From positions 47,030 to 81,344 of the forward strand of contig DCUZ01000019.1 in NCBI GenBank assembly GCA_002327305.1: a DNA stretch of 34,315 nt, written 5' to 3'. The notes below the pieces were generated by a model. That model was given only the letters and a program-made list of their open reading frames with translations. It was not told the DNA's origin and did no database searches. Position numbers and translations under genes: made by a program. Positions 3,193 to 23,731 of this stretch are shown one piece after another (positions within the stretch are counted from its first letter, which is position 1; the number at the start of each line of letters is the position of its first letter). The stretch comes from Holophagales bacterium UBA2201. GTDB taxonomy: Bacteria; Acidobacteriota; Thermoanaerobaculia; UBA2201.

Positions 3193-3196
3193 AACC

Positions 3197-3222
3197 GGGG
3201 CGGGTTGCCCTCGTCCCGCCCC
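3197..3222 (+). terminator. GC-rich hairpin downstream of the EF-G-like gene
   Basis: Stem gggcggg ... cccgccc; no clear T-run follows. Confidence 0.3.
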
Positions 3223-3420
3223 CCCGGCAATATCCTCCCGCTCATCACGACTCAGGGTTCTCCCCAGGGAAGAATCTTCCGGTGAGCCGCTCTCTCTGCG
3301 CCGGGGCAAGGTATAATAATCCCATGCCCCGAACAGGCCGACCAAGGAAGCGAATCAACCGTCCGGCTTCATTTTTTCTTAACATTGGCGGGTTATCATC
3401 ATAGCGTCCCGACCTCAGCC

Positions 3421-5001
3421 ATGAAGAACCGGACCGCCTCCCTCAGCGCACCGCGACCCCCGACGAAGGCCCCCTTCCCCCTGAGGGCCGCCTGCGTGGA
3501 CATGGGCTCCAACGCCATCCGCTTCTTCGCCGCCGAGTTCGGCTCCCCCACCCAATCCACCGTCCTCGACGATGAACGCCTCCCCGTGCGCCTGGGGGCC
3601 GGCGTTTTCCTCTCCGGCCGCCTCGATGCGGCGGCGATGGAGGAGGCCCTGGCGTCGCTGGCGGGCCTCCCCGCGCGCCTTCAGGCCTTGAAGATCGATC
3701 TGTTCCGGATGGTGGCCACCAGCGCGGTGCGGGAAGCCGTCAATGGAAAGGCCTTCCTGGAGCGGGTGGAGAGGACGACGGGCCTGCGGGGCGAGACCAT
3801 CTCGGGCTACGAGGAGGCCCGCCTCATCCACCGCGCGGTGCGCGGGCGGGTCCCCATGGGGAGGCGGCCATGGCTGATGGTGGACGTGGGGGGCGGGAGC
3901 GTGGAGGTGACCCTCGCCGACACCGAGGGGCTGGTCTGGAGCGAATCGCACACCATGGGGGCCGTGCGCCTGTTGGAGGAGCTGGCCGGGGGAAGGCAGG
4001 AGCCGGGTCATCTCCGCCGCCTCCTGGAGGAATATGTAGCCACCCTCAACCTTCCCGCCGTCCTGGGGCGCCAGCGCCCCGCCGGCCTCATCGCCACCGG
4101 GGGCAACATCGACGCCCTGGCCCTCCTGGCGGGGGCCCTCCCGCCGAACGGCGGGCCCGGCCGGCTCCCAAGGGCCGACCTCCGAAAACTCATCGGAACC
4201 CTCTCGCGCCTCTCCCACGCCCGCCGGGTGCGCGACCTGGGCCTCCGCCCCGATCGGGCCGACGTCATCCTTCCGGCCGCCCTCGTCTACGACCGGGCCG
4301 CCGAGCTGGCGGGGGCCAGGGAAATCTGGGTTCCCCGCGCCGGGTTGAAGGAGGGGCTCCTCCTGGACCTGGTGGAGGACGCCGCCACCCACCGCGACCA
4401 TGTTGCGCGGCAGGACCGGCAGACCCGGGCGGGGGCCCTGGCGCTGGGGCGGCGGTACCGCTTCGACGAAGCCCACGCGGAGCAGGTCGCGTCCCTGGCG
4501 CTTTCGCTGTTCGACCAGCTGCGGCCCCTTCACGGCCTCGGAGAAACGGACCGCCGGCTCCTGACGGCCGCGGCGCTCCTGCACGACATCGGCAGTCACG
4601 TCTCCTACCGGAAACACCACAAGCACTCGCTCTACCTCATCGCCCAGTCGGAGCTCCCCGGATTCTCGGCGGAGCAGATGCTCCTCACGGCCAATATCGC
4701 GCGCTACCACCGCAAGGCGGAGCCCGGCCCGACCCATCCCGATTTCGCGGACCTGCCCCGCGGGGACCAGCGTCGGGTGCGGAAGCTCGCGGCCCTCCTG
4801 AGGGTGGCCGACGCCCTCGACCGCGAGCACCTCCAGGCCGTCCGGGGGATCAGGGCGCGGGGCGCGGGGCGCACGGTGCGCCTCCGCGTCGACGGGACGG
4901 GCGACCGGGTGCTGGAGCGGTGGGCCCTGCGGCGCAAGGCGGGGCTCTTCGAGCGGACGTACGGCCGGGAACTCATCCTCACCACAGGGGGAAAACCATG
5001 A
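3421..5001 (+). CDS. ppx: Ppx/GppA family exopolyphosphatase / pppGpp phosphohydrolase with C-terminal HD domain
   Basis: VDMGSNAIRF is the ASKHA N-terminal motif; the HD region reads HDIGSHVSYRKHHKHS. ATG 3421 was chosen and the 5' end is uncertain. Confidence 0.85.
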   Translation: MKNRTASLSAPRPPTKAPFPLRAACVDMGSNAIRFFAAEFGSPTQSTVLDDERLPVRLGAGVFLSGRLDAAAMEEALASLAGLPARLQALKIDLFRMVATSAVREAVNGKAFLERVERTTGLRGETISGYEEARLIHRAVRGRVPMGRRPWLMVDVGGGSVEVTLADTEGLVWSESHTMGAVRLLEELAGGRQEPGHLRRLLEEYVATLNLPAVLGRQRPAGLIATGGNIDALALLAGALPPNGGPGRLPRADLRKLIGTLSRLSHARRVRDLGLRPDRADVILPAALVYDRAAELAGAREIWVPRAGLKEGLLLDLVEDAATHRDHVARQDRQTRAGALALGRRYRFDEAHAEQVASLALSLFDQLRPLHGLGETDRRLLTAAALLHDIGSHVSYRKHHKHSLYLIAQSELPGFSAEQMLLTANIARYHRKAEPGPTHPDFADLPRGDQRRVRKLAALLRVADALDREHLQAVRGIRARGAGRTVRLRVDGTGDRVLERWALRRKAGLFERTYGRELILTTGGKP

Positions 5002-5027
5002 TCCCAAGGGGAGAAACCATGATCCCG
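4986..5027 (+). repeat. 21-bp tandem duplication spanning the RBS and start codon of the downstream kinase gene
   Basis: gggggaaaaccatgatcccaa is followed directly by ggggagaaaccatgatcccgg. Confidence 0.8.
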
Positions 5028-5684
5028 GGAAAACTGATCGCTGTGGAGGGGCTCGACGGGTCGGGCAAATCCACGCAGATCCACCTGGTCCATCAGTGGC
5101 TCCAGGGGCTCCGGTGCGGGGTCTTCTTCACCGAGTGGAACTCCAGCGGCCTCGTCAAGGGGGCGACGCGGCGGGGGAAGAAGCAGCAGATCCTCACCCC
5201 CGTCACCTTTTCCCTCATCCACGCCACCGACTTCGCCGACCGGTACGAGCGGCAGATCCTCCCCATGCTCAAGGGGGGGCACATCGTCCTGTGCGATCGC
5301 TACATCTTCACCCCCTTCGGCCGCGACGAGGTGCGTGGCTGCGATCCGAAGTGGCTGCGCACCCTGTACGGGTTCGCCCGCGTCCCCGACATCACCCTCT
5401 ACTTCCGCCTCCCCCTGGCCGTCTCGCTGGGGCGCATCCTGGAGGGCCGCCCCAAGTTGAAGTATTTCGAGGCGGGGATGGACATGGGGCTCTCTCCCGA
5501 CATCATCGAGTCGTTCAAGATCTTTCAGGGGCGTATCATGGAGCGGTACGACCGGATGGCCAAGGAGTTCAAGTTCACCGTCATCGACGCCACGCGCCCC
5601 ATTCACGCGCAGCAGGAGCAGGTGCGGAGGATCATCGCCCAGCGGATCGACCTGGCGAAATACCATCAGAGGGGTCTCCAATGA
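4998..5684 (+). CDS. thymidylate kinase-like P-loop kinase, paralog 1
   Basis: Walker A VEGLDGSGKST and motif DRY (LCDRYIF). ATGA overlap with the ppx stop. An alternative start at 5019 is created by the tandem duplication. Confidence 0.75.
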   Translation: MIPRGETMIPGKLIAVEGLDGSGKSTQIHLVHQWLQGLRCGVFFTEWNSSGLVKGATRRGKKQQILTPVTFSLIHATDFADRYERQILPMLKGGHIVLCDRYIFTPFGRDEVRGCDPKWLRTLYGFARVPDITLYFRLPLAVSLGRILEGRPKLKYFEAGMDMGLSPDIIESFKIFQGRIMERYDRMAKEFKFTVIDATRPIHAQQEQVRRIIAQRIDLAKYHQRGLQ

Positions 5685-6388
5685 GGGCCAAGCGCTGCTA
5701 CCTCAAGCCCCTTCCGGGCGTGGTCCCCGCCAAACTGCCGGGCCTCCTTCTCGTCATCGAGGGCCCGGACTCGTCGGGGCGCTCCACCCACATCGGCCTG
5801 CTGGCGCAGTGGCTGGAGGAGCGGGGCCACGCCGTGGCCCAGGCGGGGCTGAAGCGCTCCGAACTGGTGGGGCTGGAGCTGGAGCAGGCCAAGGCGGGGA
5901 ACGTCCTTTCGCCCCGTACCATGTCGCTCTTCTACGCCACCGATTTCTACGACCAGTTGGAGAACCGCATCGTCCCCGCGCTCAGGGCCGGCACCGTGGT
6001 CCTGGCCGACCGGTACTTCTTCACCCTCATGGCGCGCGACATCGTCCGCGGCGGCGACCGCTCCTGGCTGGAGTCGCTCTACGGGATGGCCATCGTCCCC
6101 GACGCCGTCTATTCGTTCATCGTCTCCTCCCGCACCCTGGTCCAGCGAACCCTCCACTCCCACGCCCTCATGGACTACTGGGAGTCGGGGATGGACCTGG
6201 GCCTCTCGCGCGACTGGTTCGACTCCTTCCTGGCCTACCAGCGGCGGATGCGGGTGGAGTTCCACCGGATGAAGGAAAAGTACGGGTTCGAAGAGATCAA
6301 CGCCAACCGCTCCATCCGCGCTATCCAGGCCGACCTGCGAGCCCGGGTCCAGACCGTTCTGGACACCCGGCTTGCAGGGATGAAGTAG
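5681..6388 (+). CDS. thymidylate kinase-like P-loop kinase, paralog 2, with a Lys-to-Arg Walker A
   Basis: IEGPDSSGRST, ADRYFF. Colinear similarity to paralog 1 (ATDF.D, VRGGD..WL..LYG, SGMDLGLS). ATGA overlap with paralog 1. Confidence 0.75.
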   Translation: MRAKRCYLKPLPGVVPAKLPGLLLVIEGPDSSGRSTHIGLLAQWLEERGHAVAQAGLKRSELVGLELEQAKAGNVLSPRTMSLFYATDFYDQLENRIVPALRAGTVVLADRYFFTLMARDIVRGGDRSWLESLYGMAIVPDAVYSFIVSSRTLVQRTLHSHALMDYWESGMDLGLSRDWFDSFLAYQRRMRVEFHRMKEKYGFEEINANRSIRAIQADLRARVQTVLDTRLAGMK

Positions 6389-6399
6389 GAGGACCTTCC

Positions 6400-6813
6400 A
6401 TGCCCACCCGTTCCGTCCGCAAGACCCAGCCCGTCCGCAAGGCCCGGCCCGTGCGCAAAGCCCCGCCCCAACCCAAAGCCGCCCCGGCCCCGAAACCCTC
6501 CGGAAAGGAGACCCGCAAGGCGCGCCACGCCGGGCGGCTGAAGGCCGGCCTATTGGCTCTGCGGACCACCCTCCAGGAGGTCCAGGAGCACTATTCGGTC
6601 CGGACCAACGGCCTGCTCGTCCAGATGATGCAGGTCGTGGAGCCGCCCGAGGGGTCGGAGCACCCGGTCCTCCCCTCCCGCAAGACCGTGGACCGGATGC
6701 TGGAGGCGATCCAGGGTCTCAAGGTCAAGCCCAAGAAGGGGCGGGGCAAGGATTTGCAGCGCCTCCAGGACCTGCTCGAGGCGCTGTGGATCCAATTGCC
6801 CCCTCAACCGTAA
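6400..6813 (+). CDS. small basic protein with an N-terminal P-V-R-K-A repeat tail (hypothetical)
   Basis: RBS aggagga precedes ATG 6400. N-terminus MPTRSVRKTQPVRKARPVRKAPPQPKAAPAPKPSGKETRKAR is encoded by three 15-bp nucleotide repeats of ccgtccgcaaggccc. Confidence 0.6.
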   Translation: MPTRSVRKTQPVRKARPVRKAPPQPKAAPAPKPSGKETRKARHAGRLKAGLLALRTTLQEVQEHYSVRTNGLLVQMMQVVEPPEGSEHPVLPSRKTVDRMLEAIQGLKVKPKKGRGKDLQRLQDLLEALWIQLPPQP

Positions 6814-6855
6814 ATACAGGCTGAGGGCTTTAGGCTGAAGGTTGAAGGAATAGCT

Positions 6856-7854
6856 TTGATATTAAAACGCCAGGTGCGTGTCGCATCCTATGGACTCCAT
6901 CCCGGCGACACGCTGGCCGAAGCGGCGCGGAAGATCATCCTCAAACAGGTGGCACGGATGCGCAAGCACGCGCCCGGGACCCGTGAGGGGAGGGACTGCG
7001 AGGCCCTCCACGACATGCGGGTGGCCACGCGCCGCCTCCGCTTCGCCCTCCGCCTCTTCGCCCCCTGGATGCCCCCCGGACGGGCCGACCGTCTCCGGAC
7101 GGACCTGCGGCGCGTGGCCCTTGCCCTGGGGCGGGTGCGGGACCTGGATGTGTTCCTGGAGGGCCTGCCCTCCCTGGCGGACGAGGCCGGGCTGTCCGCG
7201 GATCAGCGCCGGGCCCTTCTGGGCGCCCTGCGGCGCAGGCGCGGGCAAGGGCGTTCGGTGCTGGTGCGGATGCTCGCCGGCCGCCGCTTCCTGGCGCTGG
7301 TCCTCGTCCTGGAGCGGGTCCCGCTGAGCGGAGCGGACGCGCCCGCGCGGGAGGCATCGGGCCGCATGCTCCGGAAGGCCGCCCGCGCCCTTCGCGCCTG
7401 GGGGCGCCGGGCCGACCTCACCCGTCCGGCGGACCTGCACCGCCTCCGCATCCTGTTCAAGCGCCTCCGCTATACCTGCGAGTATTTCAACGAACTCTAC
7501 GGAGGCGCCCTCGACGGCGCCATCGCCCGGTTCATCCGGTTCCAGGACTGCCTGGGCCGCTACCAGGACGCCGTCATCGCCGCCTCCCTTCTGGACGGGT
7601 TGCCCGGAAGCCGGAAACCGGAGGACGGGGGCGACGCGGGGCGTGACCGAGATCGACCTGATCTTGCAGGGGCGACGGCGAAAATTCAGGAGATCCTGCG
7701 CGCCGAAAGGGGGCTTCAGAGGGAGGCGTTTGCGGAGTTGTGGGTGGACTTTCCCCTGCTGATGCGCGCCTTCACCAAACTCCAAGGACTCCCGGAACGA
7801 CCCGGGACGGAGTCCGTGCCTTCGGGCACGGACCCGGAGGGGCGCAACCCATAA
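6856..7854 (+). CDS. CHAD domain protein (polyphosphate-associated helical domain)
   Basis: HDMRVATRRLRFALRLF and further His/Arg-rich helices are typical of CHAD. TTG start with RBS gaagga. Confidence 0.7.
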   Translation: MILKRQVRVASYGLHPGDTLAEAARKIILKQVARMRKHAPGTREGRDCEALHDMRVATRRLRFALRLFAPWMPPGRADRLRTDLRRVALALGRVRDLDVFLEGLPSLADEAGLSADQRRALLGALRRRRGQGRSVLVRMLAGRRFLALVLVLERVPLSGADAPAREASGRMLRKAARALRAWGRRADLTRPADLHRLRILFKRLRYTCEYFNELYGGALDGAIARFIRFQDCLGRYQDAVIAASLLDGLPGSRKPEDGGDAGRDRDRPDLAGATAKIQEILRAERGLQREAFAELWVDFPLLMRAFTKLQGLPERPGTESVPSGTDPEGRNP

Positions 7855-7912
7855 GCAAACCGTTGATTTTCAAGGCAATGGAGATGAACCTGCCGCCGGG
7901 AAAAAGATCCCC

Positions 7913-7941
7913 TTGACACTGATTGTTTATTAGCATACAAT
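7913..7941 (+). promoter_or_regulatory. sigma70-like promoter for marR (TTGACA-N17-TACAAT) within an AT-rich operator-like region
   Basis: ccTTGACActgattgtttattagcaTACAAT. Confidence 0.45.
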
Positions 7942-7964
7942 ATACATATGAAAGGACGAGCGCC

Positions 7965-8456
7965 ATGGGATTGAAGGACGAGCTGGGGCTTCCCCACCCC
8001 GTCGCCACGCTGGCCCACGAGGCCATGCTCAACATCTTCGTCACCGCCGAGGCCCTCGGCAAGGAGGCGGACCGGGTCCTCCAGCCGCACGGCCTCACCA
8101 AGGCCCAGTTCGACATCCTCATGCTGCTGGAACACCAGACGGCCGACGGCGGGGCCGACCAGAGCACCCTCGGCCGGATGCTGGTGGTGAACCGCTCCAA
8201 TGTCACGGGCCTGATCGACCGGATGGAGCGGGACGGGCTGGTGAAGAGGATGGCCGATCCGGCCGACCGGCGCGTCAACCGGGTCAGGATGACTCCCAAG
8301 GGGATGAAGGTCCTCCGCGCCGCCGAGCAGGCCTATGTCGCGAGGACGCGCGAGGTGGTCGCCGCCCTCCGCGCCGCCGAGCAGGAGGCCCTCTGCCGGA
8401 CCCTGGAGCGGGTGCGGGCCTCCCTGCGCAAAAACCCTAATCCAAAGAAGGCCTAA
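7965..8456 (+). CDS. MarR family transcriptional regulator
   Basis: Winged-helix MarR signature (LTKAQFDILMLLE...RSNVTGLIDRMERDGLVKR). My hand count and the ORF-track frame disagree by 1 nt at the start. Confidence 0.85.
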   Translation: MGLKDELGLPHPVATLAHEAMLNIFVTAEALGKEADRVLQPHGLTKAQFDILMLLEHQTADGGADQSTLGRMLVVNRSNVTGLIDRMERDGLVKRMADPADRRVNRVRMTPKGMKVLRAAEQAYVARTREVVAALRAAEQEALCRTLERVRASLRKNPNPKKA

Positions 8457-8532
8457 ATGATCACCCGCAAGAATCCCCTGGATTTTTTTGCATTATATGG
8501 TTCACTAGTATACTGTATATGTACACTCTATC

Positions 8533-8625
8533 TGCTTCCTGTTCCTTGTTCCTCGTTCCTCGTTCTTCGTTCCTCGTTCTTCTGCCTTCCTTCTTCATCC
8601 TTCCTCCTTCTACCTTCTTACTTTA
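8533..8625 (+). repeat. pyrimidine-rich tandem heptamer array (about 12 units; cgttcct / cgttctt / ccttctt) in the leader of the radical SAM gene
   Basis: Strict 7-nt periodicity. It is preceded by AT-rich palindromes (agtatact at 8505-8525). Confidence 0.75.
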
Positions 8626-8642
8626 TCTCACGGAGGCCCCCC

Positions 8643-10022
8643 ATGAACATCCTGCTGATCGCCCCCGCCAGCGGCCCATGGCGCGGCGTGGGCCGCCGCC
8701 GTCTCTTCGGGGGACGGACCTTCCGCTTCTCCATGCTCTCGCTCCTCTCCGTCGCCGCCGAGACGCCCCCCGGAACCACCATCCGCATCGTGGACGAACA
8801 GATCGAAGAGGTGCCCACCAGCGGACGCTTCGACCTGGTGGGGATCACCTCCATGACGGCCGCGGCGCCCCGCGCCTATGCTTTGGCGGACCGTTTCCGC
8901 GCCGCGGGGGTCCCCGTCGTGTTGGGGGGGATGCACCCCACCTTCATGCCGGAGGAGGCCCTGGCGTACGCCGACGCGGTGTGCGCCGGCGAGGCCGAAG
9001 GGGTCTGGCCCGCCATCGTGGAGGACGCCCGGGCCGGCCGCCTCGGAGGCGTGTACCGCGCTCCCGCGCCGGCCGACCTTTTCCTCCTCAAGCCGGTCCC
9101 GCGCGCCCTGTTGCGCTCCCGGCATTATGCCACCGTCCAGGCGGTCCAGGCCACCCGGGGGTGCCCGCACCAATGCGCCTTCTGTTCCGTCTCCGCCTTC
9201 CATGAGGGGCTGTTCCGCACGCGCCCCATGGAGCAGGTGATCGCCGAGATCCGCTCCCTGCCCGGAAGGTTTTTCATTTTCACGGACGATTCCCTCGCGG
9301 CCGAGCCCGACTACGCCAAAGCGCTATTTGCGGCCCTGGCCCCGCTGAATAAGCGGTGGATGACCCAGGCCACCCTCGGGATCGCTGACGACGGAAAGTT
9401 GCTGGACCTGGCGGAGCGCGCCGGGTGCGTGGCGGTCTTCACGGGGTTGGAAACCTTCAGCGCTGAAAACCTCGAGGGGGTCGGCAAAGGGTTCAACAAG
9501 GCGGAGGAATACCGGGATCGGATCGCCCGCCTGCACGCCCATGGCATGGGCGTCGAGGCGGGCATCGTCTTCGGGTTCGACCACGACCGGCCGGAGGTCT
9601 TCCGCAACACCCTGGCGATGCTGGACGCATTACGCATCGACATGGCCCAGATCTCCATCCTCACCCCCCTGCCCGGAACGCCGTTCTTTAAGGCCATGCG
9701 CGGCCGCATCCTGGACGGCGACTGGTCCCATTACGACTACCATCACGCCGTTTTCCAGCCGGCGGGGATGTCCCCTGAGGAACTGAAGGCCGGACACGAC
9801 TGGATCACGCGCGCATTCTACTCCCCGCGACGCATCGCCCGGCGCCTGGGGTGGGCGGCGACGCGCAGGCACGCCGCCCGGGTCCTCCCCTTCGCCGCGG
9901 CCATCAATCTTGCCTATAATAGACGGGTGGCGAATTGGAATATCCGGGGATGGGACCCCGCCGGCGAACCCCCCGGCTTCACCCTTCACCACAAGCCGCT
10001 GGCCAAAACGGCCGGCGCCTGA
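8643..10022 (+). CDS. B12-binding domain-containing radical SAM protein
   Basis: N-terminal B12-binding fold, CPHQCAFC radical SAM cysteine triad, RBS ACGGAGG. Confidence 0.85.
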   Translation: MNILLIAPASGPWRGVGRRRLFGGRTFRFSMLSLLSVAAETPPGTTIRIVDEQIEEVPTSGRFDLVGITSMTAAAPRAYALADRFRAAGVPVVLGGMHPTFMPEEALAYADAVCAGEAEGVWPAIVEDARAGRLGGVYRAPAPADLFLLKPVPRALLRSRHYATVQAVQATRGCPHQCAFCSVSAFHEGLFRTRPMEQVIAEIRSLPGRFFIFTDDSLAAEPDYAKALFAALAPLNKRWMTQATLGIADDGKLLDLAERAGCVAVFTGLETFSAENLEGVGKGFNKAEEYRDRIARLHAHGMGVEAGIVFGFDHDRPEVFRNTLAMLDALRIDMAQISILTPLPGTPFFKAMRGRILDGDWSHYDYHHAVFQPAGMSPEELKAGHDWITRAFYSPRRIARRLGWAATRRHAARVLPFAAAINLAYNRRVANWNIRGWDPAGEPPGFTLHHKPLAKTAGA

Positions 10023-10036
10023 TCAAGGAGGATCAC

Positions 10037-10429
10037 ATGTTCCTGCAACTTCTGCTCGTCAATTTCCTGCTGGCCGCGGCGGTTGCCGCGGTGGTGGTGC
10101 TGGTGTTCCGCAAGCCCGTGCGGGCGGTCCTGCACCGCATCATCGGGGAGGAGATCCAGTCCGCCTGGAGCCGCTATGTGATGTTCGCCATCGCCGTCGT
10201 CGGCGTTTCGGGGGGCGTCCGGCTGTGGGAGCTGGGCCGCTACATCACGCCGGATAAAGAGACCGGGAAGGTGCTGGAGCTGACCCACGACCGGTGGGTC
10301 CTGGAGATCTACAGCACCATCGTCGGCGCCCTCCAGGCCGATACCTGGATGCTCCTCGTCTTCTTCCTCTTCGCCCTGATCGCCTTCGTCGTCGTCAAGG
10401 GGTTCGAGCTGAAAAGGCATGCGGGATGA
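10037..10429 (+). CDS. small integral membrane protein (about 3 TM helices), hypothetical
   Basis: RBS aaggagga. Hydrophobic segments LLLVNFLLAAAVAAVVVLVF, VMFAIAVVGV and WMLLVFFLFALIAFVVV. Confidence 0.55.
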   Translation: MFLQLLLVNFLLAAAVAAVVVLVFRKPVRAVLHRIIGEEIQSAWSRYVMFAIAVVGVSGGVRLWELGRYITPDKETGKVLELTHDRWVLEIYSTIVGALQADTWMLLVFFLFALIAFVVVKGFELKRHAG

Positions 10430-10455
10430 ACGGCGCAGTGAATATGCGCCGGTTG

Positions 10456-10483
10456 CGAGTTTAAAGTTTCGAGTTTCGAGTTG
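10456..10483 (-). repeat. GAAAC heptamer array (inverted copy)
   Basis: gagtttaaagtttcgagtttcgag is the reverse complement of ctcgaaactcgaaactttaaactc. It matches the 13996-14035 array almost exactly. Confidence 0.7.
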
Positions 10484-10653
10484 GCGCGGAAGCCATATTT
10501 ATGTGGGGATGTCGCGCAGAGCGGCCGCGGCATTGAGAAACGAATGTCGCGGTCGGTCGAGCGGATGTAATTTCAAATGGACCTTATCAGCGTGATCAAG
10601 GAAGATATTAAACGAACCAAGGCCGATGTGATATCGCTTTCAACCGAGACAAG

Positions 10654-10688
10654 AGGGCGCAGCATGCTGCGCCCCTACGGCATTTTTC
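10654..10688. terminator. perfect 20-bp palindrome gggcgcagcatgctgcgccc plus T-run; likely bidirectional terminator
   Basis: The palindrome is followed by ctacggcatttttcg. A similar element is at 17363-17384. Confidence 0.5.
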
Positions 10689-10693
10689 GTCCT

Positions 10694-10726
10694 GAACTCG
10701 AAATTCGAAACCCGAAACTCGAAACT
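10694..10726 (+). repeat. GAAAC heptamer array (tcgaaat-tcgaaac-ccgaaac-tcgaaac)
   Basis: Tandem 7-mers, inverted relative to 10456-10483. Confidence 0.7.
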
Positions 10727-10734
10727 GGCTGTCG

Positions 10735-12225
10735 CTACAGGGCCTTTTTCACCGCCTTGGCGAAGGTCTCCAGCACCTTGACGCGGGCATGGTTCTTGTC
10801 CACGGCCTCAACGAGGGTCCACGGCGCGTGGGGCGTGGAGGTGCGCTCCACTAGCTCGCCGACGGCGGCCTCGTAGGCGTCCCACTTATTGCGGTTGCGC
10901 CAGTCCTCTTCGGTGATCTTGAACTGCTTCCAGGCGGTCTTCTCCCGCTCCTTGAACCGGCGCAACTGCTCCTCGGGGGAGATGTGGAGGAAAAATTTCT
11001 GCACGATGTAGCCGTGCCGGATCATCGCCTCCTCGAACTCGTTGATCTCCGCGTAGGCCCGTTTCCATTCGTGCTCTTTGGCAAACCCCTCCACCCGCTC
11101 CACCATGACGCGCCCGTACCAGGAGCGGTCGAAGATGACCACGCGGCCCCGGCCGGGGAGGTGGCGCCAGAACCGCCAGAGGTAGTGCTGGGCCCGCTCC
11201 TCCTCGGTGGGGGCGGCGATGGGGATGACCCGGTAGTCGCGGGCGTCAAGGGAGGCCGTGAGGCGGCGGATCGTGCCCCCCTTGCCTCCGGCGTCCCACC
11301 CCTCGAAGACCAGGACGGCGGAGAGGCCCTTGGGTTTGGCCTTGCGCCAGAGGCGGTTGACCCGTCCCTGGACCTCCTCCAGCCGCTCCTTGTATTCCTT
11401 GTCCTCCAGCTTCTTCGTCAGGTCGAGGCGGTCCAGGACGCTGTGGATGCCCTCCCCCAAAGCCCCTTTCTTCCCCGCCCTGGACGCTGTCGCGGCGGCA
11501 GGTTTCGACGGAGGCGCTTCCTGGAGACGGGCGGTGAGCCCCTCCATGATGGTGGTGCCCACGGTCAGCATCTGGTGGCGGCGGTCCTTGGCTTCCACGA
11601 TCGTCCACGGCGCCTCGGCCGTGTGGGTCTCCTGCAGGACCTCCTCGTCGATGGCGCGGAAGTGGTCGTAGAGCTTGTAGTGCTTCCAGTCCGTCTTGGT
11701 CACGCGCCAGGCGGTGCGGGGGTCCGCCTCCAGCGCCTTGAGCCGCTTTTTCTGGTCCTTCTTGGAGAGGTGGAACCAGAACTTGATGAGCAGGACCCCG
11801 TCGTCGGTGAGGGCCTTCTCCAGGAGGCGGATGCGCTCCACCTCCCGCTCCAGGTCCCCCTTCGAGATCTCGTCGTAGGCCCGCTGGAGGATGGGGCGGG
11901 TGTACCAGGAGCAGAAGAAGATCCCCGTGCGCCCCTTGGGCGGCATGGCCAGCCAGTAGCGCCAGTCCTCGGGGCGGCCCCGCTCCTCCCCGGAGCGGGG
12001 GCCGAAGGCGGTGGTCTGCAGAAAGCGGGGGTCCATCCACTCGTGGAGGGTGTTCAGCACCTCCCCCTTGCCCGCCCCGTCGGCCCCGTGGATGAGGATG
12101 AGGACGGGAAAGCGGCGGTCCTTCAACTGCTCCTGCGCCTGCAGAAGCTTGATGCGCAGGTCGGGGACCCGCTTGTCGTACTCTTCCTTGGCAACCTTCA
12201 ACCCCAGCTCCACGGCTTCGAACAT
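10735..12225 (-). CDS. ppk2: two-domain polyphosphate kinase 2 (PPK2 class II, polyphosphate:AMP/NMP phosphotransferase-like)
   Basis: Two PPK2 modules with Walker A HGADGAGKGE and EGWDAGGKGG; about 497 aa. RBS GGAGGTG. Start ATG 12225 (MFEAVELG). Confidence 0.9.
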   Translation of the reverse strand: MFEAVELGLKVAKEEYDKRVPDLRIKLLQAQEQLKDRRFPVLILIHGADGAGKGEVLNTLHEWMDPRFLQTTAFGPRSGEERGRPEDWRYWLAMPPKGRTGIFFCSWYTRPILQRAYDEISKGDLEREVERIRLLEKALTDDGVLLIKFWFHLSKKDQKKRLKALEADPRTAWRVTKTDWKHYKLYDHFRAIDEEVLQETHTAEAPWTIVEAKDRRHQMLTVGTTIMEGLTARLQEAPPSKPAAATASRAGKKGALGEGIHSVLDRLDLTKKLEDKEYKERLEEVQGRVNRLWRKAKPKGLSAVLVFEGWDAGGKGGTIRRLTASLDARDYRVIPIAAPTEEERAQHYLWRFWRHLPGRGRVVIFDRSWYGRVMVERVEGFAKEHEWKRAYAEINEFEEAMIRHGYIVQKFFLHISPEEQLRRFKEREKTAWKQFKITEEDWRNRNKWDAYEAAVGELVERTSTPHAPWTLVEAVDKNHARVKVLETFAKAVKKAL

Positions 12226-12311
12226 GGCGGACACCTCCGTCTTTTCTTTGGTTCCATTATACGCCGGTCCCGCCCCCCGCGGTCCGACCTCCCTTGGGAG
12301 CGGGCCAGAGG

Positions 12312-12317
12312 TATAAT
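12312..12317 (+). promoter_or_regulatory. -10 element (ggTATAATaat) upstream of ridA; divergent from ppk2
   Basis: The same ggtataataat motif occurs at 3311. Confidence 0.35.
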
Positions 12318-12344
12318 AATGCGACATCGCAAAGGAGGAACGCC

Positions 12345-12722
12345 ATGAACATCATCCAGACCGACAAGGCCCCGGCCGCCATCGGCCCCTACAGCCAGGC
12401 CATCCGGGAAAACCGCTTCGTCTTCACCTCCGGGCAGATCCCCCTCGACCCCGCCACCGGGCAGATGGACAACGCCACCTTCGCCGCCGAGGTGGAGCGG
12501 GTCCTGGCCAACCTGAAGGAGGTGCTCAAGGCCGCCGACTGCCAGATGAAGGATGTGATGAAGACCACCGTGTTCCTCACCGACATGGGGCTCTTCGTCG
12601 AGTTCAACGGCATTTACGAAAAGGCCTTCGGAGGCCACAAGCCAGCCCGCTCCACGGTCCAGGTGGCCGCCCTCCCCAAGGGCGCCCGCATCGAGATCGA
12701 GGCCCTGGCGCTGGTGCCGTAA
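12345..12722 (+). CDS. ridA: RidA/YjgF family reactive-intermediate deaminase
   Basis: MNIIQTDKAPAAIGPYSQA...FVFTSGQIP...ARSTVQVAALPKGARIEIEA; RBS aaaggagga. Confidence 0.9.
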   Translation: MNIIQTDKAPAAIGPYSQAIRENRFVFTSGQIPLDPATGQMDNATFAAEVERVLANLKEVLKAADCQMKDVMKTTVFLTDMGLFVEFNGIYEKAFGGHKPARSTVQVAALPKGARIEIEALALVP

Positions 12723-17384: not shown

Positions 17385-17497
17385 CTACTGGTTATTATAT
17401 CCATCTAACATTTATTTGCGCCCCTTTCCGTCAAACACCTTGAACCCGAGGCCCGTATTGTGATATGGTAAGCCGAATTTTATTTAAGGAGAGACCT

Positions 17498-17848
17498 ATG
17501 AAGAGAGCCACCGTGTTGTTCACTTTCCTGGCGTTCATCCTTGTCCTGGCCGGCTCCCTGGCGGCGGCCGACGCCCCGGCCGACATCAAACTCACGGCCA
17601 AGAACGGCGATGTCACGTTCCCCCACAAGGCCCACGCGGAGGCGCTGAAGATCGCCTGCGCCACCTGCCACCACACCACCAAGGAGGGCGAGGCGGTCCA
17701 GAAGTGCTCCGCCTGCCACGGCGTGGACGCCAAGGCCCCCAAGGCGCAGGACGCCTTCCACAAGCAGTGCCAGGGCTGCCACAAGGACGAGAACGCCAAA
17801 AACGCCAAGAAGGCGCCCGTCAAATGCACGGAGTGTCACAAGAAATAG
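17498..17848 (+). CDS. periplasmic tetraheme cytochrome c3 family protein
   Basis: Signal peptide plus four CxxCH motifs (CATCH, CSACH, CQGCH, CTECH) in 116 aa; RBS aaggagag. Confidence 0.85.
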   Translation: MKRATVLFTFLAFILVLAGSLAAADAPADIKLTAKNGDVTFPHKAHAEALKIACATCHHTTKEGEAVQKCSACHGVDAKAPKAQDAFHKQCQGCHKDENAKNAKKAPVKCTECHKK

Positions 17849-17922: not shown

Positions 17923-20900
17923 TCACTTCTGCGCCGGGATGAAGAAGGCGTCGTTGCTGGTGGTCCGATTGTCCACGACGGAAGCGTAGGCGTAGACGCT
18001 GCCGCCCGAGAGGACGGAGACCTCGCCCAGCGCCACCGCATGCGGCGCGGCAATGCCGAGGTCGCTGAAGATGTTGACCTGGAAATTGCCGTGGGCGGGG
18101 ACGGGGTAGGTCTTGAACCCCAGGACCGACCGGTTGGCGTCGTACAGCTTCACCTGCACCTGGGCGCCCTGGCCGGAAACCTCGGTGAACCCCACGTTGC
18201 TCCGGTAGTCGGCGGTGTTGGCCAGTTGGAGCAGAAGGCCCGTCTCGCCGGGGGCGATGAGGTCCGCGGCGGCCCCCCGGGCGGGGATGAACTGCCCGAA
18301 GGTCCCCAGCCCTGCCGTCGAGGTGTAGGTGCGGGAGGTGACGATCAACCCCTGGGATGACTGAAGGTGCAGGGCCCCCGAGGTGTTGCCCGTGACGGAG
18401 GGGAAGAGGGTGGTGAGAATGTCATCGCGGGAGACCAGCTCCCCCTGCCCGATCGTGAGATTGGCGGTGGCGGTGGCGCCGGCGGCCACGTAGGTGAGGG
18501 TGACCGCCTGGGAGGCGAACGGGTTGTAGAGGCGCAAATCGGTGCGCCAGTTGGACCCGTACCCCCCCTGCGTCCGGGCGGCGGCGGCCACCACCTGATG
18601 CGCCTGCCCCTGGACGTCGCCGGCGCGCTGGATGGGGATGAAGATGGGATCGGAGGAGATGTTGTCGGCGACGGAGGCGTAGGCGGCGAACACGGCCCCC
18701 GGCGTGGAAGAGGTCACGACCGCGTAGGCGTCGTCCACGGCGGCCGAAGTGAGGGCGTCCATGACATAGTTCTGCTGGTAGTGCTCGAAGGGGTTGAGGG
18801 TGCGCGACCAGTCCCCGATGTGCGACCCGTCCGCCCGGTGGAAGGAGAATTTGACCTCGACGAAACCGCTCCCCGCATTCACCACCCCCACGTTGGTCCG
18901 GAACCCGGCGTTTTTGGCCAGGTGCAGGAGGATCCCCTCCTCCCCGCTTTTGAGCAGGCGGGAGGAGAGGGTGGCGGGGATGAACTGCCCGTAGGTGCCC
19001 AGGACCCCGCGGTCGTTGTAGGTGCGGGAGGTGATCGCCAGGGGTTGGGTGGAGGTCAGCCACAGGGCCCCCGCCAGGTTGTTGAGGCGGAACATGCTCC
19101 CCACGATGTCCCCCAGCCGGACGAACCGGAACCCCGGCAGGATCACCTCGGACCCGGCGGCGGCGGCGTTGTCCTGCCCGCTGGGGAGGAAGTAGGCGTA
19201 GACCGAGATCTCTGCGCTTCGGGGGTTGTGGACCACCACGTCGGAGAGCCAGTTGGTGTTGTTGGCCCCCTGGGCCTTGGCCGCCGCCGGAAGAAGATAG
19301 GTGTAGGGCTGGGCGGTGGTCAGCGGCGGGACGATGCCGCGTCCGTAGACGATGACCTGCTTGGTGGCGGATGAGGTTCCGAAGGCATTGGAAACCGTCA
19401 GCGTGACGGGGAAGGTGCCGGAGAAAAGATAGGTGTGGACGGGGTTCTGCTCCATCGAGGTGGTCCCGTCACCGAAGTCCCAGGACCAGGCGGTGGGGAC
19501 GAGGGAGGAGGCGTCCACGAACTGAAGGCCGGTGCCGATCTCGGGGCGGCCGGCGAACCAGGCAAAATCGGCCACCGGCGGGGCGTTGAAACCGTAGATC
19601 CAGGCCACCCCCGCGGCGTCATCGGGGTGGGGCGTCCGCTTGTTGCTCGAGGGGCCCGATCCGGCGTAGCCGTACATCACCTTGTCCCGATCGTCGCCAT
19701 CCCCGTAGAGGTCGCGCAGGGTGAGCCAGTGGCCGGTCTCGTGGAGGACGATGGAATGGACGTCAAAGGCCCCGCTGGGCGTGGTTTCGGCGATGCTGTA
19801 GTTGAACTTGGTGTTGAGGACGAGGTCGGCCTCCACCATGTATCCCTGGGCATTGGACCAATAGGTGGCGTAGCCGAGGGTGTTTTCGTAGCCGGGCCCG
19901 AGGTCGGAGGCCATGATCTCGCTCTTTCCATTGTTGCGCAGGTCCCGATTCTCCGTGGTCCCGGCCTGGGTGAACACGATGTTGCCGTGCTGGCCCCAGG
20001 TCCCGGTGGAGGCCGCCACGGTGGCGGTCCAATCGGGGATATTACTTCCGAGGTAATAGGAGATCGTGGGGGGGGCGCCGTTCCATTTCATGCCGCCGTA
20101 GCCGAAGGAGACCTTGTAATCGTACCCCGGCGACTTGGCCCCGGCGCTGTTGGTCACCCAGACGGGACCGGTGGCGGCGGAGCCGGGATACCCGGCCACG
20201 CGCCCGATGGGCACCTGCACCCGGATGACATTGTCGTTCCATTCGGAGATGGTCGAGCCGGTGATGGTGGACTGCCCCTCGAAGGTGAACTGGACGCGGC
20301 TGCTGGTCCCCTTGGTGCCGAACCCCACGCCGCGGATGTAGGCCTCGGTGCCGGTGCCGGCGGAGGCCTTCTCCGGGTGCATCTCCACGATCATGGGGCC
20401 GGTGCCCGGCTGGTCCTCCGCGGGGGGCTCCATCTTCTTGGCGATGAGGGCCCACTCCTTGTTGGACGGATCCATGAAGTCGTCGGGAGCGGCCTGCCCC
20501 TCCCGGTAGGATTCGATGCGGAAATCGTATTCCTGGCGCGCGGAACCGTAGAGATTGAGGATCCGCGCGTCGGTGGAATCGTAGTTGGTGATGACATAGA
20601 GCGGGGTGGTATAAAGGTGGGACCAGGCGGTGGTCCCCGCCAGGCGCCAATAGACCTTGTCGAAGACGGTGATGGAGCCGCTCCCCCCCTTGACGTCGGC
20701 GTCCCACAGGAGGCGGCCGAACTGGATGTACCCGTCGCCGTCATAGTCCACCTCGTAGTCCCAGTTCGCCAAAACCAGATTGGAGGTCAGCGCCCGTCCC
20801 GGCGGGGCGGCGGCGTCCGCCGGCTTCTCGATCCGGGAAGCGTCCAACGGGGAGATGGCGCCCCCCGATTCGACGACGGGGCCGAGCCCCAGAAGGGTCC

Positions 20901-21399
20901 CGTACAGGTCGGCGCCGGGATCCCGCCGGAAGGCCTCCACCGCGTCCATGAACCGTTCGACCGGCACCTCCACCCCCTCGACCCGCACGGAGCCGGCCTC
21001 AATGGGGAACTTCCCCTGGAAACCGCCCATGACGACGCGCCGGGGCCCCTTGAGGAAGAGGACCGCCTCTTCGCCAACCTCGAAAGTGGCCAGGTCGGTG
21101 ACGACCTGCCTCCATTCGCCCACCTCTCCGCCCAGAAGGGTCAGGAGAAGGGTCTCGCCGGGGGCATGGCCCTTGAGGAGGCGGCCGGGGACAAGGGTGA
21201 CGGTGGTGTAGATGTTGCGCCCGTCCCCCTCCTCCACCCACCGGCTCTCCATCGCCTGGACGCGGACGGAGAGGATCAGGTCGGCCTGGCCGACCATCTC
21301 CTCCAGCGGCATCCGCACCACGAGGGCAGGGGCCGCAAGGGAGAGGCCGAGCAGGAGGATGGTAAGGGCGAACCACGGGGAAATCCGATGATAGTGCAT
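17923..21399 (-). CDS. secreted multidomain zinc metalloprotease (HExxH) with IPT/TIG-like and PKD domains and two C-terminal copies of an uncharacterised ~200-aa domain
   Basis: Start ATG 21399 with RBS GGAGG; signal peptide MHYHRISPWFALTILLLGLSLAAPA. HETGHWLTLRD zinc site, WDFGDGTTS...NPVHTY PKD motif. Tandem repeats with SRTY..G.LGT(Y/F)GQFIPA and YASV.DN..S.D.FIP motifs. Confidence 0.85.
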   Translation of the reverse strand: MHYHRISPWFALTILLLGLSLAAPALVVRMPLEEMVGQADLILSVRVQAMESRWVEEGDGRNIYTTVTLVPGRLLKGHAPGETLLLTLLGGEVGEWRQVVTDLATFEVGEEAVLFLKGPRRVVMGGFQGKFPIEAGSVRVEGVEVPVERFMDAVEAFRRDPGADLYGTLLGLGPVVESGGAISPLDASRIEKPADAAAPPGRALTSNLVLANWDYEVDYDGDGYIQFGRLLWDADVKGGSGSITVFDKVYWRLAGTTAWSHLYTTPLYVITNYDSTDARILNLYGSARQEYDFRIESYREGQAAPDDFMDPSNKEWALIAKKMEPPAEDQPGTGPMIVEMHPEKASAGTGTEAYIRGVGFGTKGTSSRVQFTFEGQSTITGSTISEWNDNVIRVQVPIGRVAGYPGSAATGPVWVTNSAGAKSPGYDYKVSFGYGGMKWNGAPPTISYYLGSNIPDWTATVAASTGTWGQHGNIVFTQAGTTENRDLRNNGKSEIMASDLGPGYENTLGYATYWSNAQGYMVEADLVLNTKFNYSIAETTPSGAFDVHSIVLHETGHWLTLRDLYGDGDDRDKVMYGYAGSGPSSNKRTPHPDDAAGVAWIYGFNAPPVADFAWFAGRPEIGTGLQFVDASSLVPTAWSWDFGDGTTSMEQNPVHTYLFSGTFPVTLTVSNAFGTSSATKQVIVYGRGIVPPLTTAQPYTYLLPAAAKAQGANNTNWLSDVVVHNPRSAEISVYAYFLPSGQDNAAAAGSEVILPGFRFVRLGDIVGSMFRLNNLAGALWLTSTQPLAITSRTYNDRGVLGTYGQFIPATLSSRLLKSGEEGILLHLAKNAGFRTNVGVVNAGSGFVEVKFSFHRADGSHIGDWSRTLNPFEHYQQNYVMDALTSAAVDDAYAVVTSSTPGAVFAAYASVADNISSDPIFIPIQRAGDVQGQAHQVVAAAARTQGGYGSNWRTDLRLYNPFASQAVTLTYVAAGATATANLTIGQGELVSRDDILTTLFPSVTGNTSGALHLQSSQGLIVTSRTYTSTAGLGTFGQFIPARGAAADLIAPGETGLLLQLANTADYRSNVGFTEVSGQGAQVQVKLYDANRSVLGFKTYPVPAHGNFQVNIFSDLGIAAPHAVALGEVSVLSGGSVYAYASVVDNRTTSNDAFFIPAQK

Positions 21400-21503
21400 T
21401 TTTGCCTCCAAATAGGGTTTACGGATATGGACCATGCCGCATCGCCGGCCTGGGCCTGCATGATAACGCTTTGCGGGTAGAATGATATTTCCTTCCGCCC
21501 TTC

Positions 21504-21534
21504 TTGTCAAATGGCCCCCGCTTTCCGTTACAAT
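21504..21534 (+). promoter_or_regulatory. candidate promoter TTGTCA-N19-TACAAT giving a leaderless or near-leaderless GT4 transcript
   Basis: The -10 ends about 10 nt before GTG 21544. Confidence 0.3.
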
Positions 21535-21543
21535 GGAGGGGCC

Positions 21544-22644
21544 GTGAAGCCCCTCTCCGTCCTTTTCGTCCTCGAATACTATCCCCCGCACATCGGCGGC
21601 GTGGAGACGATGTTCGCCGCCCTGGCGGGGGAACTGGCCCGTCGGGGGCACCGGGTCCGGGTCTTCACGGGGAGCGTCCCGGGGGCGCCGGACCGGGAGA
21701 CGGCCGGAGGGGTGGAGATCGTCCGCGTCCCCCTGGGCCCCTGGCGCCGCTTCCGGTTCACCTTTGGAATGACGCGGCGGCTGTCCCCCCTGGCCCGGGA
21801 GGCCGACCTGGTCCACGCCTCCACCTACTCGGGGACCTGGTCGGCCGTGCATGCGGCGCGGGCGGCGGGACGGCCGGCGGTCGTTTCGGTCCACGAGGTG
21901 TGGCTGGACCTCTGGAAGCGGGTCCCCTTCGTTCCGGCCCTCCAACGCTGGACCGCCCCGTGGCAGGAGCGGTTCCTCCTCCGCCTCCCCTACGACGCCT
22001 ATTCCGCCGTTTCGCGGGCGACGATGGAGCGCCTCCACCCCTTCTCCGGGGGCCGGCCGGTGTTCCATGTCCCCGCGCCGGTGGCCGTCCCGGAGGGGGT
22101 CCGCTGGTCGTCCCCCCCCCCTCCCTTCACCTTCCTGTATTTCGGCCGCCCGGGCCACTGGAGGGGGCTCGATCTGTTGCTGAAGGCCTTCGCCACACGG
22201 CGAGCGGGGGGGTCGGAAGCGCGGCTTGAGCTCATCCTCAGCCCTGAACCCCGGCGCGAGCGGGCCGCCCTGTTGTGCCTGGCGGAGGCGCTGGGGCTCG
22301 GGCCCGCCCTGGCGGTGCGGGAACCCCTTCCCCGCGAGGCCCTGTTCGACCGGCTGGCCTCGGCGCACGCGGCCGTCTTCCCTTCGTTGAGCGAGGGGTT
22401 CGGCCTGGCGGCGGCGGAGGCCTGCGCCCTCGGCGTCCCCGTCGTGGCCTCCGACGCCGGCTCCCTGCCGGAGGTGGTTTCGGGGCGGTGCCTCTTCTTC
22501 CCCGCGGGAGACGCGACGGGCCTGGTCCGCGCCCTGGAACGGGCCGAGCGGGGGGAGTGGGAGGAGCGGCCGCCGGTCCGCTTTCCCTTAAACGCCTCCG
22601 TCGAGGCCCTTCTGGCGATGTATCAAAGTATAATGAAGCCATGA
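21544..22644 (+). CDS. GT4 family glycosyltransferase (GT-B fold)
   Basis: N-terminal EYYPPHIGGVE and C-terminal PSLSEGFGLAAAEACALGVPVV (EX7E). An in-frame alternative ATG at 21511 lies inside the predicted promoter. Confidence 0.8.
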   Translation: MKPLSVLFVLEYYPPHIGGVETMFAALAGELARRGHRVRVFTGSVPGAPDRETAGGVEIVRVPLGPWRRFRFTFGMTRRLSPLAREADLVHASTYSGTWSAVHAARAAGRPAVVSVHEVWLDLWKRVPFVPALQRWTAPWQERFLLRLPYDAYSAVSRATMERLHPFSGGRPVFHVPAPVAVPEGVRWSSPPPPFTFLYFGRPGHWRGLDLLLKAFATRRAGGSEARLELILSPEPRRERAALLCLAEALGLGPALAVREPLPREALFDRLASAHAAVFPSLSEGFGLAAAEACALGVPVVASDAGSLPEVVSGRCLFFPAGDATGLVRALERAERGEWEERPPVRFPLNASVEALLAMYQSIMKP

Positions 22645-23429
22645 GACCCCCGACCGCCCTGCTCCTCCTCCTGCTGGCCGCCTCCCTGTCCGCCCAGGAC
22701 CCCGTGGACAACTGCGAGCGCCTCCGGACCGCCCGGGCCCTCGCCCCCCTCGCCGAAGAGGAGGAGGCCGCGGCGGGCCTCGTCGCCCGGCTGGTGGCGG
22801 ACGCCCTGCACGAGGCGCGCGGGCCCCTTCCCGACGGCACCTACCGGTGGGCCCGCCTGTCGGATAAGGCGGCCGTCACGGTCTCCAAAGGGGTGGAGGT
22901 GGACCGTAAGCAGCTGGAGTGGAAGATGAACGGGACGAACTGGTTCGCCCTCCGCCTCAAGTGCCCCAAGAAGAAGAACCTCTTCTGGGGCAACGCCCCG
23001 GTCATGCTGCGCTCGGTCACCCTCGACGACGGGCAAGGGGCGAGGGTCCTTCTGGCGGACCGCCACCTCGCGCGCGACGAGGAGTTGAAGATCCCCTTCG
23101 GGGCCATCGTGCCCCGCGCCTCCGTCGCCATCGTCTTCGAGCGATACCCCGATTCCGAGCGCGACCCGTACATCGCGGTCGAGGCGCTCCAGGCGGGGTT
23201 GTGGGACGATCCCTCCAATCCCCAGGCGGAGATGCTCAGGCGCCTGGTGGAACTCTCCGGCGCCCGGCCGGGCGGAGGGGATTACGCCGCCCGCCTCGAC
23301 CGCGCCATGGAGGGGTGCGTCCCGCCCGTGCGGCGCGAACTGGAGTACATTCTCTACCTCCTCAAGGGCAACCCGCGCGAGCAGGAGGAGGGACGGAAAC
23401 GGCTGGAGGAGCTCCTGAAGAAGATGTAG
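22641..23429 (+). CDS. secreted hypothetical protein translationally coupled to the glycosyltransferase
   Basis: ATGA overlap. Signal peptide MRPPTALLLLLLAASLSAQD; no recognisable domain. Confidence 0.6.
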   Translation: MRPPTALLLLLLAASLSAQDPVDNCERLRTARALAPLAEEEEAAAGLVARLVADALHEARGPLPDGTYRWARLSDKAAVTVSKGVEVDRKQLEWKMNGTNWFALRLKCPKKKNLFWGNAPVMLRSVTLDDGQGARVLLADRHLARDEELKIPFGAIVPRASVAIVFERYPDSERDPYIAVEALQAGLWDDPSNPQAEMLRRLVELSGARPGGGDYAARLDRAMEGCVPPVRRELEYILYLLKGNPREQEEGRKRLEELLKKM

Positions 23430-23613: not shown

Positions 23614-23731
23614 GCATTCCACCCTCCCAACGCTCCCCTGCGCCGCCCCGTATCGCAGGGTGTGACGACACACAACCCGGGATTGATGATGGATGTCACA
23701 AATCTTGAATGAACGAATTTTGGAGGAATGT

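Follow-up and report, generated by a model that had tools for sequence, protein, structure and literature searches.

Polyphosphate kinase 3 (PPK3), the closest known relative of the system reported here, was described in Sulfolobus acidocaldarius, where the 'thymidylate kinases' Saci_2019 and Saci_2020 are, according to transcriptome data, co-transcribed with sixA, ppx and a gene for a CHAD-domain protein (Hofmann et al., bioRxiv 2024; J Biol Chem 2026, PMC12995831). The two proteins form a heteromeric (α2β2) polyphosphate kinase, with Saci_2019 as the catalytic subunit that makes polyphosphate (polyP; cPPK3) and Saci_2020 as an inactive but activating partner (rPPK3); neither displays dTMP kinase (dTMPK) activity. 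The authors ascribed the inactivity of rPPK3 to a replaced arginine in the DRX motif, identified STK_15430 as a cPPK3 homolog and predicted that bacterial pairs of dTMPK paralogs would be PPK3 enzymes where their genes share operons with those for PPX, CHAD, SixA and Pst. They also reported that PPK1 and PPK2 are missing from most PPK3 genomes, and biochemical activities of PPK3 are known for the S. acidocaldarius enzyme only (PMC12995831). Here, we analyzed a stretch of 34,315 nucleotides from Holophagales bacterium UBA2201 (contig DCUZ01000019.1; hereafter, the window), with a G+C content of ~67%. Five plus-strand genes at positions 3421-7854 very probably constitute a bacterial PPK3 polyP operon of a Holophagales-like acidobacterium, arranged as ppx-cPPK3-rPPK3-small basic protein-CHAD. 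The direct basis of this assignment is homology, clade membership, motif states and synteny.

The operon comprises ppx (3421-5001), two genes for thymidylate-kinase-like P-loop kinases, i.e., Tmk1 (4998 or 5019-5684) and Tmk2 (5681-6388), a gene for a small basic protein (6400-6813) and a CHAD gene (6856-7854), and a two-domain PPK2 gene lies convergently downstream. An earlier note on this DNA had listed these six genes and called the region a polyphosphate-metabolism island; open reading frame (ORF) listings and hidden Markov model (HMM) scans placed all six at or near the positions given there, HMM searches confirmed each domain assignment and the label proved right. The same note had held that the polyP operons described so far contain no Tmk-like kinases, a premise that is out of date because Hofmann et al. 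(PMC12995831) showed such a pair beside ppx and CHAD to be PPK3. The apparent oddity is already explained by this published family, which the window pair appears to extend as a bacterial member. In the archaeal loci, the gene order is sixA-ppx-Saci_2019-Saci_2020-(weak CHAD) in S. acidocaldarius (locus L081) and pstS-phoX-sixA-ppx-cPPK3-rPPK3-CHAD in Nitrososphaera (L086), and the core order ppx-cPPK3-rPPK3-CHAD, together with a 4-bp overlap between ppx and cPPK3, is the same in the window. As in the S. acidocaldarius enzyme, two adjacent paralogs with the dTMPK fold are encoded 3' of ppx and 5' of CHAD, the first one with an intact Walker A lysine and DRY and the second one without the basic cleft residues. 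In contrast, the window host is bacterial (Acidobacteriota), sixA is absent, an additional small basic protein is encoded between rPPK3 and CHAD, and the rPPK3 combines a Walker A Lys→Arg change with DRY, where Saci_2020 has GKT and DGY. The Nitrososphaera operon shares with the window both the core order and an rPPK3 with a GR[ST] Walker A and DRY; it differs in being archaeal, in lacking the small basic protein and in carrying sixA and pho genes upstream.

Tmk1 (plus strand; PF02223, 65 bits) can be assigned from its sequence as cPPK3—the predicted catalytic subunit of a family-3 polyphosphate kinase—because it shares 50% identity with Saci_2019 (E 7e-71) and falls into the cPPK3 clade with a support of 97/100. 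This clade unites all Tmk1 proteins and all archaeal cPPK3 in a neighbor-joining tree of Tmk1, Tmk2 and archaeal PPK3 subunits, rooted on the Tmk of T. thermophilus; the identity of Tmk1 to Saci_2020 is 21%. Both Tmk-like proteins were also compared with all PDB sequences, and the best solved-structure match of either is STK_15430 of Sulfurisphaera tokodaii (2plr/5h70), deposited as a 'probable thymidylate kinase'—a structure of the catalytic subunit only, solved before the PPK function was known. For Tmk1, this full-length match has an E-value of 1.2e-60, with canonical thymidylate kinases at 1e-11 or worse; for Tmk2, the corresponding values are 6e-30 (full length) and 2e-9. Motif counts taken from 81 bacterial sequences per family revealed the Walker A GK[ST] in 80/81 and DR[YF] in 79/81 Tmk1 proteins, and the window protein carries GSGKST, with the lysine intact, and CDRY. 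Positively charged cleft and lid residues have been proposed to bind polyP in cPPK3; the basic loop (KGATRRGKKQQ) and lid (GRPKLKY) of Tmk1 align with KEAKKKD and KSKRKIK of STK_15430, respectively, and both segments show conservation among the bacterial proteins.

An obvious alternative is that the two proteins are ordinary, possibly duplicated, dTMP kinases that by chance lie beside ppx in this genome. Both do score above the Pfam Thymidylate_kin gathering score, their homologs are named 'dTMP kinase' in public databases, and they have the fold, the Pfam family, the P-loop and DRY in common with canonical Tmk (TIGR00041). However, with 74.5 bits (Tmk1) and 54.3 bits (Tmk2), both fall below the curated cut-off of 83.25 bits of TIGR00041, the dTMP-kinase equivalog model of NCBIfam—in keeping with the suspicion of the earlier note that these are not ordinary dTMP kinases. 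The cPPK3 match of Tmk1 is ~50 orders of magnitude better than that to any canonical Tmk, the window proteins belong to a separate clade, and positions contacting dTMP are substituted: a pairwise alignment with the T. thermophilus Tmk shows TDF where the FxxDR arginine would be expected and GRD/ARD instead of the AYQ motif that follows DRY. The operon context points to polyP as well, and the characterized orthologs are devoid of dTMPK activity (PMC12995831).

To this can be added the genomic neighborhood, which the earlier note had proposed comparing across genomes. A scan with Tmk1 over one genome per GTDB species yielded 161 relatives, the best 80 of which were kept as 80 loci—all of them in bacterial metagenome-assembled genomes (MAGs), with 62-95% identity to Tmk1 and a Holophagales MAG (Acidobacteriota) as the closest (95%). 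These loci spread over more than 10 phyla, including Acidobacteriota, Gemmatimonadota, NC10/Methylomirabilota, Spirochaetota, Verrucomicrobiota, Myxococcota, Planctomycetota, Caldisericota and Omnitrophota, among others. Neighbors were counted by tblastn mapping (Tmk2, ppx, CHAD and PPK2) or by an HMM search (small basic protein), with the loci that had enough flanking sequence as the denominator. Tmk2 directly follows Tmk1 in the same orientation in every locus (80/80), an arrangement that is far beyond chance for this very reason; ppx lies immediately upstream in 44/73, the small basic protein just downstream in 53/80 and CHAD ≤3.5 kb downstream in 28/59. The pair is thus conserved beside ppx and CHAD across phyla, not in this genome only, and the reading as ordinary dTMP kinases, extremely improbable in our view, was rejected on the grounds of the model cut-off, the PDB matches, the tree and the synteny. 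Where a gap exists between the small protein and CHAD, it holds genes for a Metallophos_2 phosphoesterase and a longer CHAD protein. Many related loci (e.g., L002, 9779-12121, and L090, 1884-4133) display this layout, in which the small protein is followed by a ~240-aa Metallophos_2 protein and an N-terminally extended CHAD protein of ~500-530 aa. The Verrucomicrobiota/Pedosphaera loci (L066-L080) represent a distinct variant, with a wider spacer of ~75-217 nt between cPPK3 and rPPK3 and no small basic protein; in about half of them, a divergent Ppx-like gene (26-31% identical) occurs on the downstream side and not upstream.

Tmk2 (5681-6388, plus strand, 235 aa; PF02223, 48 bits) is best described, judging from its sequence, as an rPPK3-type partner of cPPK3. 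All Tmk2 proteins group with the Nitrososphaera rPPK3 in the neighbor-joining tree (100/100), and a DQxEN substitution is common to Tmk2 and Saci_2020, to which the window protein is 29% identical (E 7e-31, 100 bits). The Walker A of the window protein reads GPDSSGRST, i.e., the lysine is changed to arginine, and a GR[ST] motif occurs in 80/81 members of the family. Moreover, the basic cleft residues of cPPK3 are lost, with the loop reading LELEQAKAGNV and the lid HSHALMDYW. The Walker A Lys→Arg change is common to the bacterial, Nitrososphaera and S. tokodaii rPPK3 proteins, and Saci_2020 keeps the lysine; since Saci_2020 has instead lost the DRX arginine, the lesions of rPPK3 differ between lineages. 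DGY is found only in the S. acidocaldarius and S. tokodaii rPPK3, and the Nitrososphaera protein retains DRY, as do the bacterial ones. As a side observation, the S. tokodaii rPPK3 (L087, 5626-6243) has GSGRT and Saci_2020 (L081, 5621-6253) GKT, both with DGY in place of DRY.

Several observations weigh against equating this locus with the S. acidocaldarius system, and most of them concern Tmk2. In BLAST comparisons, Tmk2 scored slightly higher against Saci_2019 (34% identity, 129 bits) than against Saci_2020, and the clade that also takes in the Sulfolobales rPPK3 proteins (Saci_2020 and Stok_r) reached only 56/100; orthology of Tmk2 to Saci_2020 is likely but not strongly resolved. The replacement of the DRX arginine is not seen, as DRY is kept in 80/81 bacterial Tmk2 sequences. 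The protein could also have an activity of its own, because it is very well conserved: the proteins of the 80 loci are 53-89% identical to that of the window. A PPK3-type enzyme might therefore be present in which Tmk2 binds nucleotide or serves as a second catalytic or sensing subunit—e.g., as an ATP/ADP sensor or with another acceptor—such that the complex works unlike its S. acidocaldarius counterpart. Besides the retained DRY and the high identity, this possibility is favored by the conservative nature of the Walker A change to arginine (80/81), the strong conservation of the lid-like YWESGMDLGLSRDWFDSF block of Tmk2, and the example of Saci_2020 with its intact lysine and lost DRX arginine. 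A Walker A Lys→Arg change in P-loop kinases, however, usually abolishes phosphotransfer; together with the absence of the basic residues found in the polyP cleft of cPPK3 and the grouping of Tmk2 with the Nitrososphaera rPPK3, this leaves the possibility a minority one, at roughly one chance in several. If Tmk2 is the impaired rPPK3-type subunit, the impairment would stem from the conserved Walker A Lys→Arg change instead of DRX loss, probably with equivalent effect. A smaller point follows along the same lines: bacterial and thaumarchaeal rPPK3 proteins may be disabled, or re-tuned, by the Walker A change, unlike the DRX loss in Sulfolobus.

The ppx product adds a second reservation. This Ppx/GppA-family phosphatase of 526 aa (3421-5001, plus strand; also called at 526 aa on public contigs) consists of a Ppx-GppA domain (PF02541, E 9e-42) and a C-terminal HD-type domain III (PF21447, E 1.7e-29); both matches place it, by sequence, at the Ppx/GppA family level. 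It misses the exopolyphosphatase cut-offs of TIGR03706 (197.6 < 307) and NF008108 (128.9 < 864) and, because the exopolyphosphatase-specific cut-off is missed, could act on pppGpp. The whole cluster might accordingly serve (p)ppGpp or nucleotide-alarmone metabolism, with the phosphatase acting on pppGpp and the kinases on nucleotides, given that GppA belongs to the same family. Yet the GppA equivalog is missed by an even larger gap (130 vs. 624), and CHAD, the PPK3 homology, PPK2 and the neighbors recurring in related loci (PstS, PhoU, PhoX, SixA and PPK1) point to polyP and phosphate, making an alarmone function very improbable. A third reservation on the PPK3 assignment is the class II PPK2 adjacent to the operon, as most PPK3 genomes are reported to be without PPK1 and PPK2 (PMC12995831).

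The last gene of the operon (6856-7854, plus strand, TTG start at 6856) encodes a CHAD-domain protein of 332 aa with a full-scoring match to PF05235 (E 7.5e-50; 170.5 bits vs. a gathering score of 25.6), and its position corresponds to that of Saci_2021 and of the Nitrososphaera CHAD gene. The protein stands alone, without a CYTH domain, and no phosphoesterase gene is found at the locus. CHAD 'phosins' are reportedly associated with polyP granules (Tumlirsch & Jendrossek 2017; Lorenzo-Orts et al. 2019). The window protein resembles them in having a full CHAD domain and in being encoded in a polyP operon; it differs in the absence of a CYTH/TTM domain, and the small basic protein encoded next to it is not a CHAD protein.

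This small basic protein (6400-6813, plus strand, 137 aa) is the one component without a counterpart in the S. acidocaldarius and Nitrososphaera operons. It has a pI of 11.2, with 28 Lys and Arg and 17 Pro residues, and begins with a disordered tail rich in these three amino acids (residues 1-45; 14 Lys and Arg, 9 Pro). Part of the tail is encoded by an 18-bp tandem repeat of 3.1 copies (6413-6468, plus strand; Tandem Repeats Finder, TRF) that specifies xVRKxx hexapeptides. In family alignments, the variable basic tail is followed by a conserved C-terminal domain of ~95 aa, and a K-x-K-P-x-K-G-R-x-K-D loop (110-118) contains the near-invariant residues K110, P111, K113, G114, R115, K117 and D118. 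An AlphaFold2 model predicts residues 41-137 with a pLDDT of 92-98, as well as helices at 35-80, 94-105 and 116-132, and would place the loop, KPKKGRGKD in the window protein, between the last two of them. Searches of Pfam and NCBIfam with this protein singly and with 43 family members returned no family match, and a fold search of the PDB gave no informative one; sporadic weak matches of a coiled-coil type to Rnk_N (4/43, best E 8e-4) and Apolipoprotein (4/43) were treated as noise. A word-based homolog search retrieved close relatives only, all 'hypothetical', and an exhaustive phmmer search identified 141 representatives at 50% identity (E ≤ 1e-3). With the exception of two marginal, very long proteins (E ~5-8e-4), these proteins are 54-185 aa long and stand alone, the domain forming their C-terminal part, and no domain fusion hinting at a function was present among the 141.

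The genomic context of distant members is more telling. Five of them occur in the arrangements ppx-cPPK3-rPPK3-small; cPPK3-rPPK3-small-Metallophos-CHAD; ppx-small; small-Metallophos-PstS; and PstS-HisK-PstB-PhoU / HD-CHAD / small-PPK1. In the last of these (L091, 5001-5558 and neighboring genes), the member lies immediately 5' of PPK1, beside HD-CHAD and pstS/pstB/phoU, and in L089 and L092 members directly follow ppx or precede a metallophosphoesterase and PstS. The protein hence accompanies two unrelated polyP kinase families—PPK3 here, PPK1 in L091—as well as genes for Ppx, CHAD, metallophosphoesterase and Pst proteins. Since members also lie beside PPK1 or ppx, the protein is not PPK3-specific and, as far as its sequence relatives indicate, is a bacterial accessory linked to polyP and phosphate; an HMM search detected no family member in four archaeal loci. 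From its charge and context, we infer that it may bind polyP. It is a fair guess, with the balance tipped slightly toward doubt, that the 137-aa protein represents an undescribed family of small polyP-associated proteins that would bind polyP, serving to prime its synthesis, regulate chain length, scaffold granules or regulate the kinase.

By homology with the S. acidocaldarius enzyme, a mechanism can be outlined for the operon. Tmk1, as cPPK3, would be a P-loop kinase that moves the terminal phosphate reversibly between ATP/ADP and polyP, synthesizing polyP only when the ATP/ADP ratio is high and regenerating ATP from ADP and polyP when energy is low. Tmk2, as rPPK3, would be a catalytically impaired paralog that oligomerizes with cPPK3 and activates it. 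The product of ppx would trim polyP to Pi, the CHAD protein would bind polyP or polyP granules, and the small basic protein could be a further polyP-associated partner that contacts polyP through its Lys/Arg tail and the KPKKGRxKD loop. The convergent class II PPK2 would convert AMP and polyP to ADP and, along with PPK3, could provide a route from AMP via ADP to ATP at the expense of polyP.

This PPK2 gene (10735-12327, minus strand) codes for a protein of 530 aa with two PF03976 stretches and a score of 694.5 bits against TIGR03708 (cut-off, 547.65 bits), which identifies it at the sequence level as a class II polyphosphate:AMP phosphotransferase. The earlier note was right about its presence but ended it at 12225, which is an internal Met of the ORF and the start used in the public gene call (496 aa). 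Two PPK2 domains are also found in the class II enzymes of Acinetobacter johnsonii (PAP) and P. aeruginosa (PA3455); the class II two-domain PPK2, like PPK3, pairs an inactive with an active module (PMC12995831), and it belongs to a P-loop kinase family different from that of the Tmk-like pair. A PPK2 gene was mapped at a distance of up to 8 kb in just 5/80 loci, so that PPK2, although associated with the operon in this lineage, was rejected as a conserved member of it. The co-location of PPK2 and PPK3 recurs in few loci (L001, L016 and L061), and a functional pairing of the two enzymes is plausible by homology.

Turning to the limits of the operon, the earlier description of all five genes as packed with ATGA stop/start overlaps applies to two of the four junctions, ppx/Tmk1 (4998-5001) and Tmk1/Tmk2 (5681-5684); Tmk2 and the small basic protein are separated by an 11-nt spacer with AGGAGG, and the small basic protein and CHAD by one of 42 nt. 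A 21-bp tandem duplication (AGGGGAAAAACCATGATCCCA x2; 4986-5026, plus strand; TRF period 21, 2.0 copies) copies the ribosome-binding site and ATGA junction of ppx and cPPK3 and creates two in-frame starts, at 4998 (228 aa) and 5019 (221 aa). The closest relative, L001 (95% identical), has this junction in a single copy with the ATGA overlap, which is the ancestral state. Because the duplication copied the junction, Tmk1 may start at 5019, as it does in the public gene call. Upstream of ppx, the intergenic region after an EF-G-like gene (3193-3420, plus strand) is the presumed promoter region of the operon; it contains a TATAAT at ~3312-3317, and a consensus scan of it found no full σ70 match. 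The same type of scan over 3421-7854 detected no consensus promoter or terminator between the five genes, and its only matches—one weak promoter-like (9/12) and two terminator-like—lie inside coding sequences. We infer that the five genes are read as a single transcript. Directly 3' of the CHAD stop, a σ70-like promoter (TTGACA-17-TACAAT, 11/12; 7913-7941, plus strand, consensus scan) signals that a separate MarR/radical-SAM unit begins here and thereby delimits the polyP operon on its 3' side.

This unit comprises plus-strand genes for a MarR protein (7923-8456), a B12-binding radical SAM protein (8457-10022) and a small membrane protein (ending at 10429). Since the 2.5-kb block is missing from L001, where CHAD and PPK2 are direct convergent neighbors, it is a separate, lineage-specific insertion, and its own strong promoter together with this absence led us to reject it as a member of the polyP unit. 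Genes for B12-binding radical SAM proteins (26-27% identical) are likewise located close to the PPK3 operon of L002 and L004.

The breadth of the family bears on how polyP metabolism is read from genomes. At E ≤ 1e-40, STK_15430 matches at least 7,812 clusters at 90% identity in a collection of 5.8 billion proteins, and the phrase 'a few bacteria' seems to understate the distribution of PPK3, at least among uncultured lineages. An enzyme only recently recognized, and characterized in a single archaeon, is now found in ppx/CHAD operons of many uncultured phyla. Because annotation still reads 'dTMP kinase', the capacity for polyP synthesis is probably under-called in environmental genomes, among them genomes that matter for the cycling and removal of phosphorus. 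Current understanding is not overturned by these results; rather, a published family is extended, and the small basic protein and the Walker A arginine offer concrete leads on the regulation or tethering of polyP kinases.

The rest of the window consists of housekeeping genes (priA, HU, EF-G, nifS/nifU, ispG, rseP, dxr, cdsA, uppS and others), and a RidA gene (12294-12722, plus strand) lies next to PPK2. An ORF of 1481 aa (17923-22368, minus strand) shows PKD and TIG matches along with a weak matrixin-like one and probably encodes a large secreted or surface protein, and a class III multihaem cytochrome c gene (17465-17848) adjoins it. Two further plus-strand ORFs, at 22275-23429 and 23693-24799 (~370-384 aa), gave no Pfam match at E ≤ 1e-3; their codon-position G+C is gene-like, clearly for 23693-24799 and borderline for 22275-23429.

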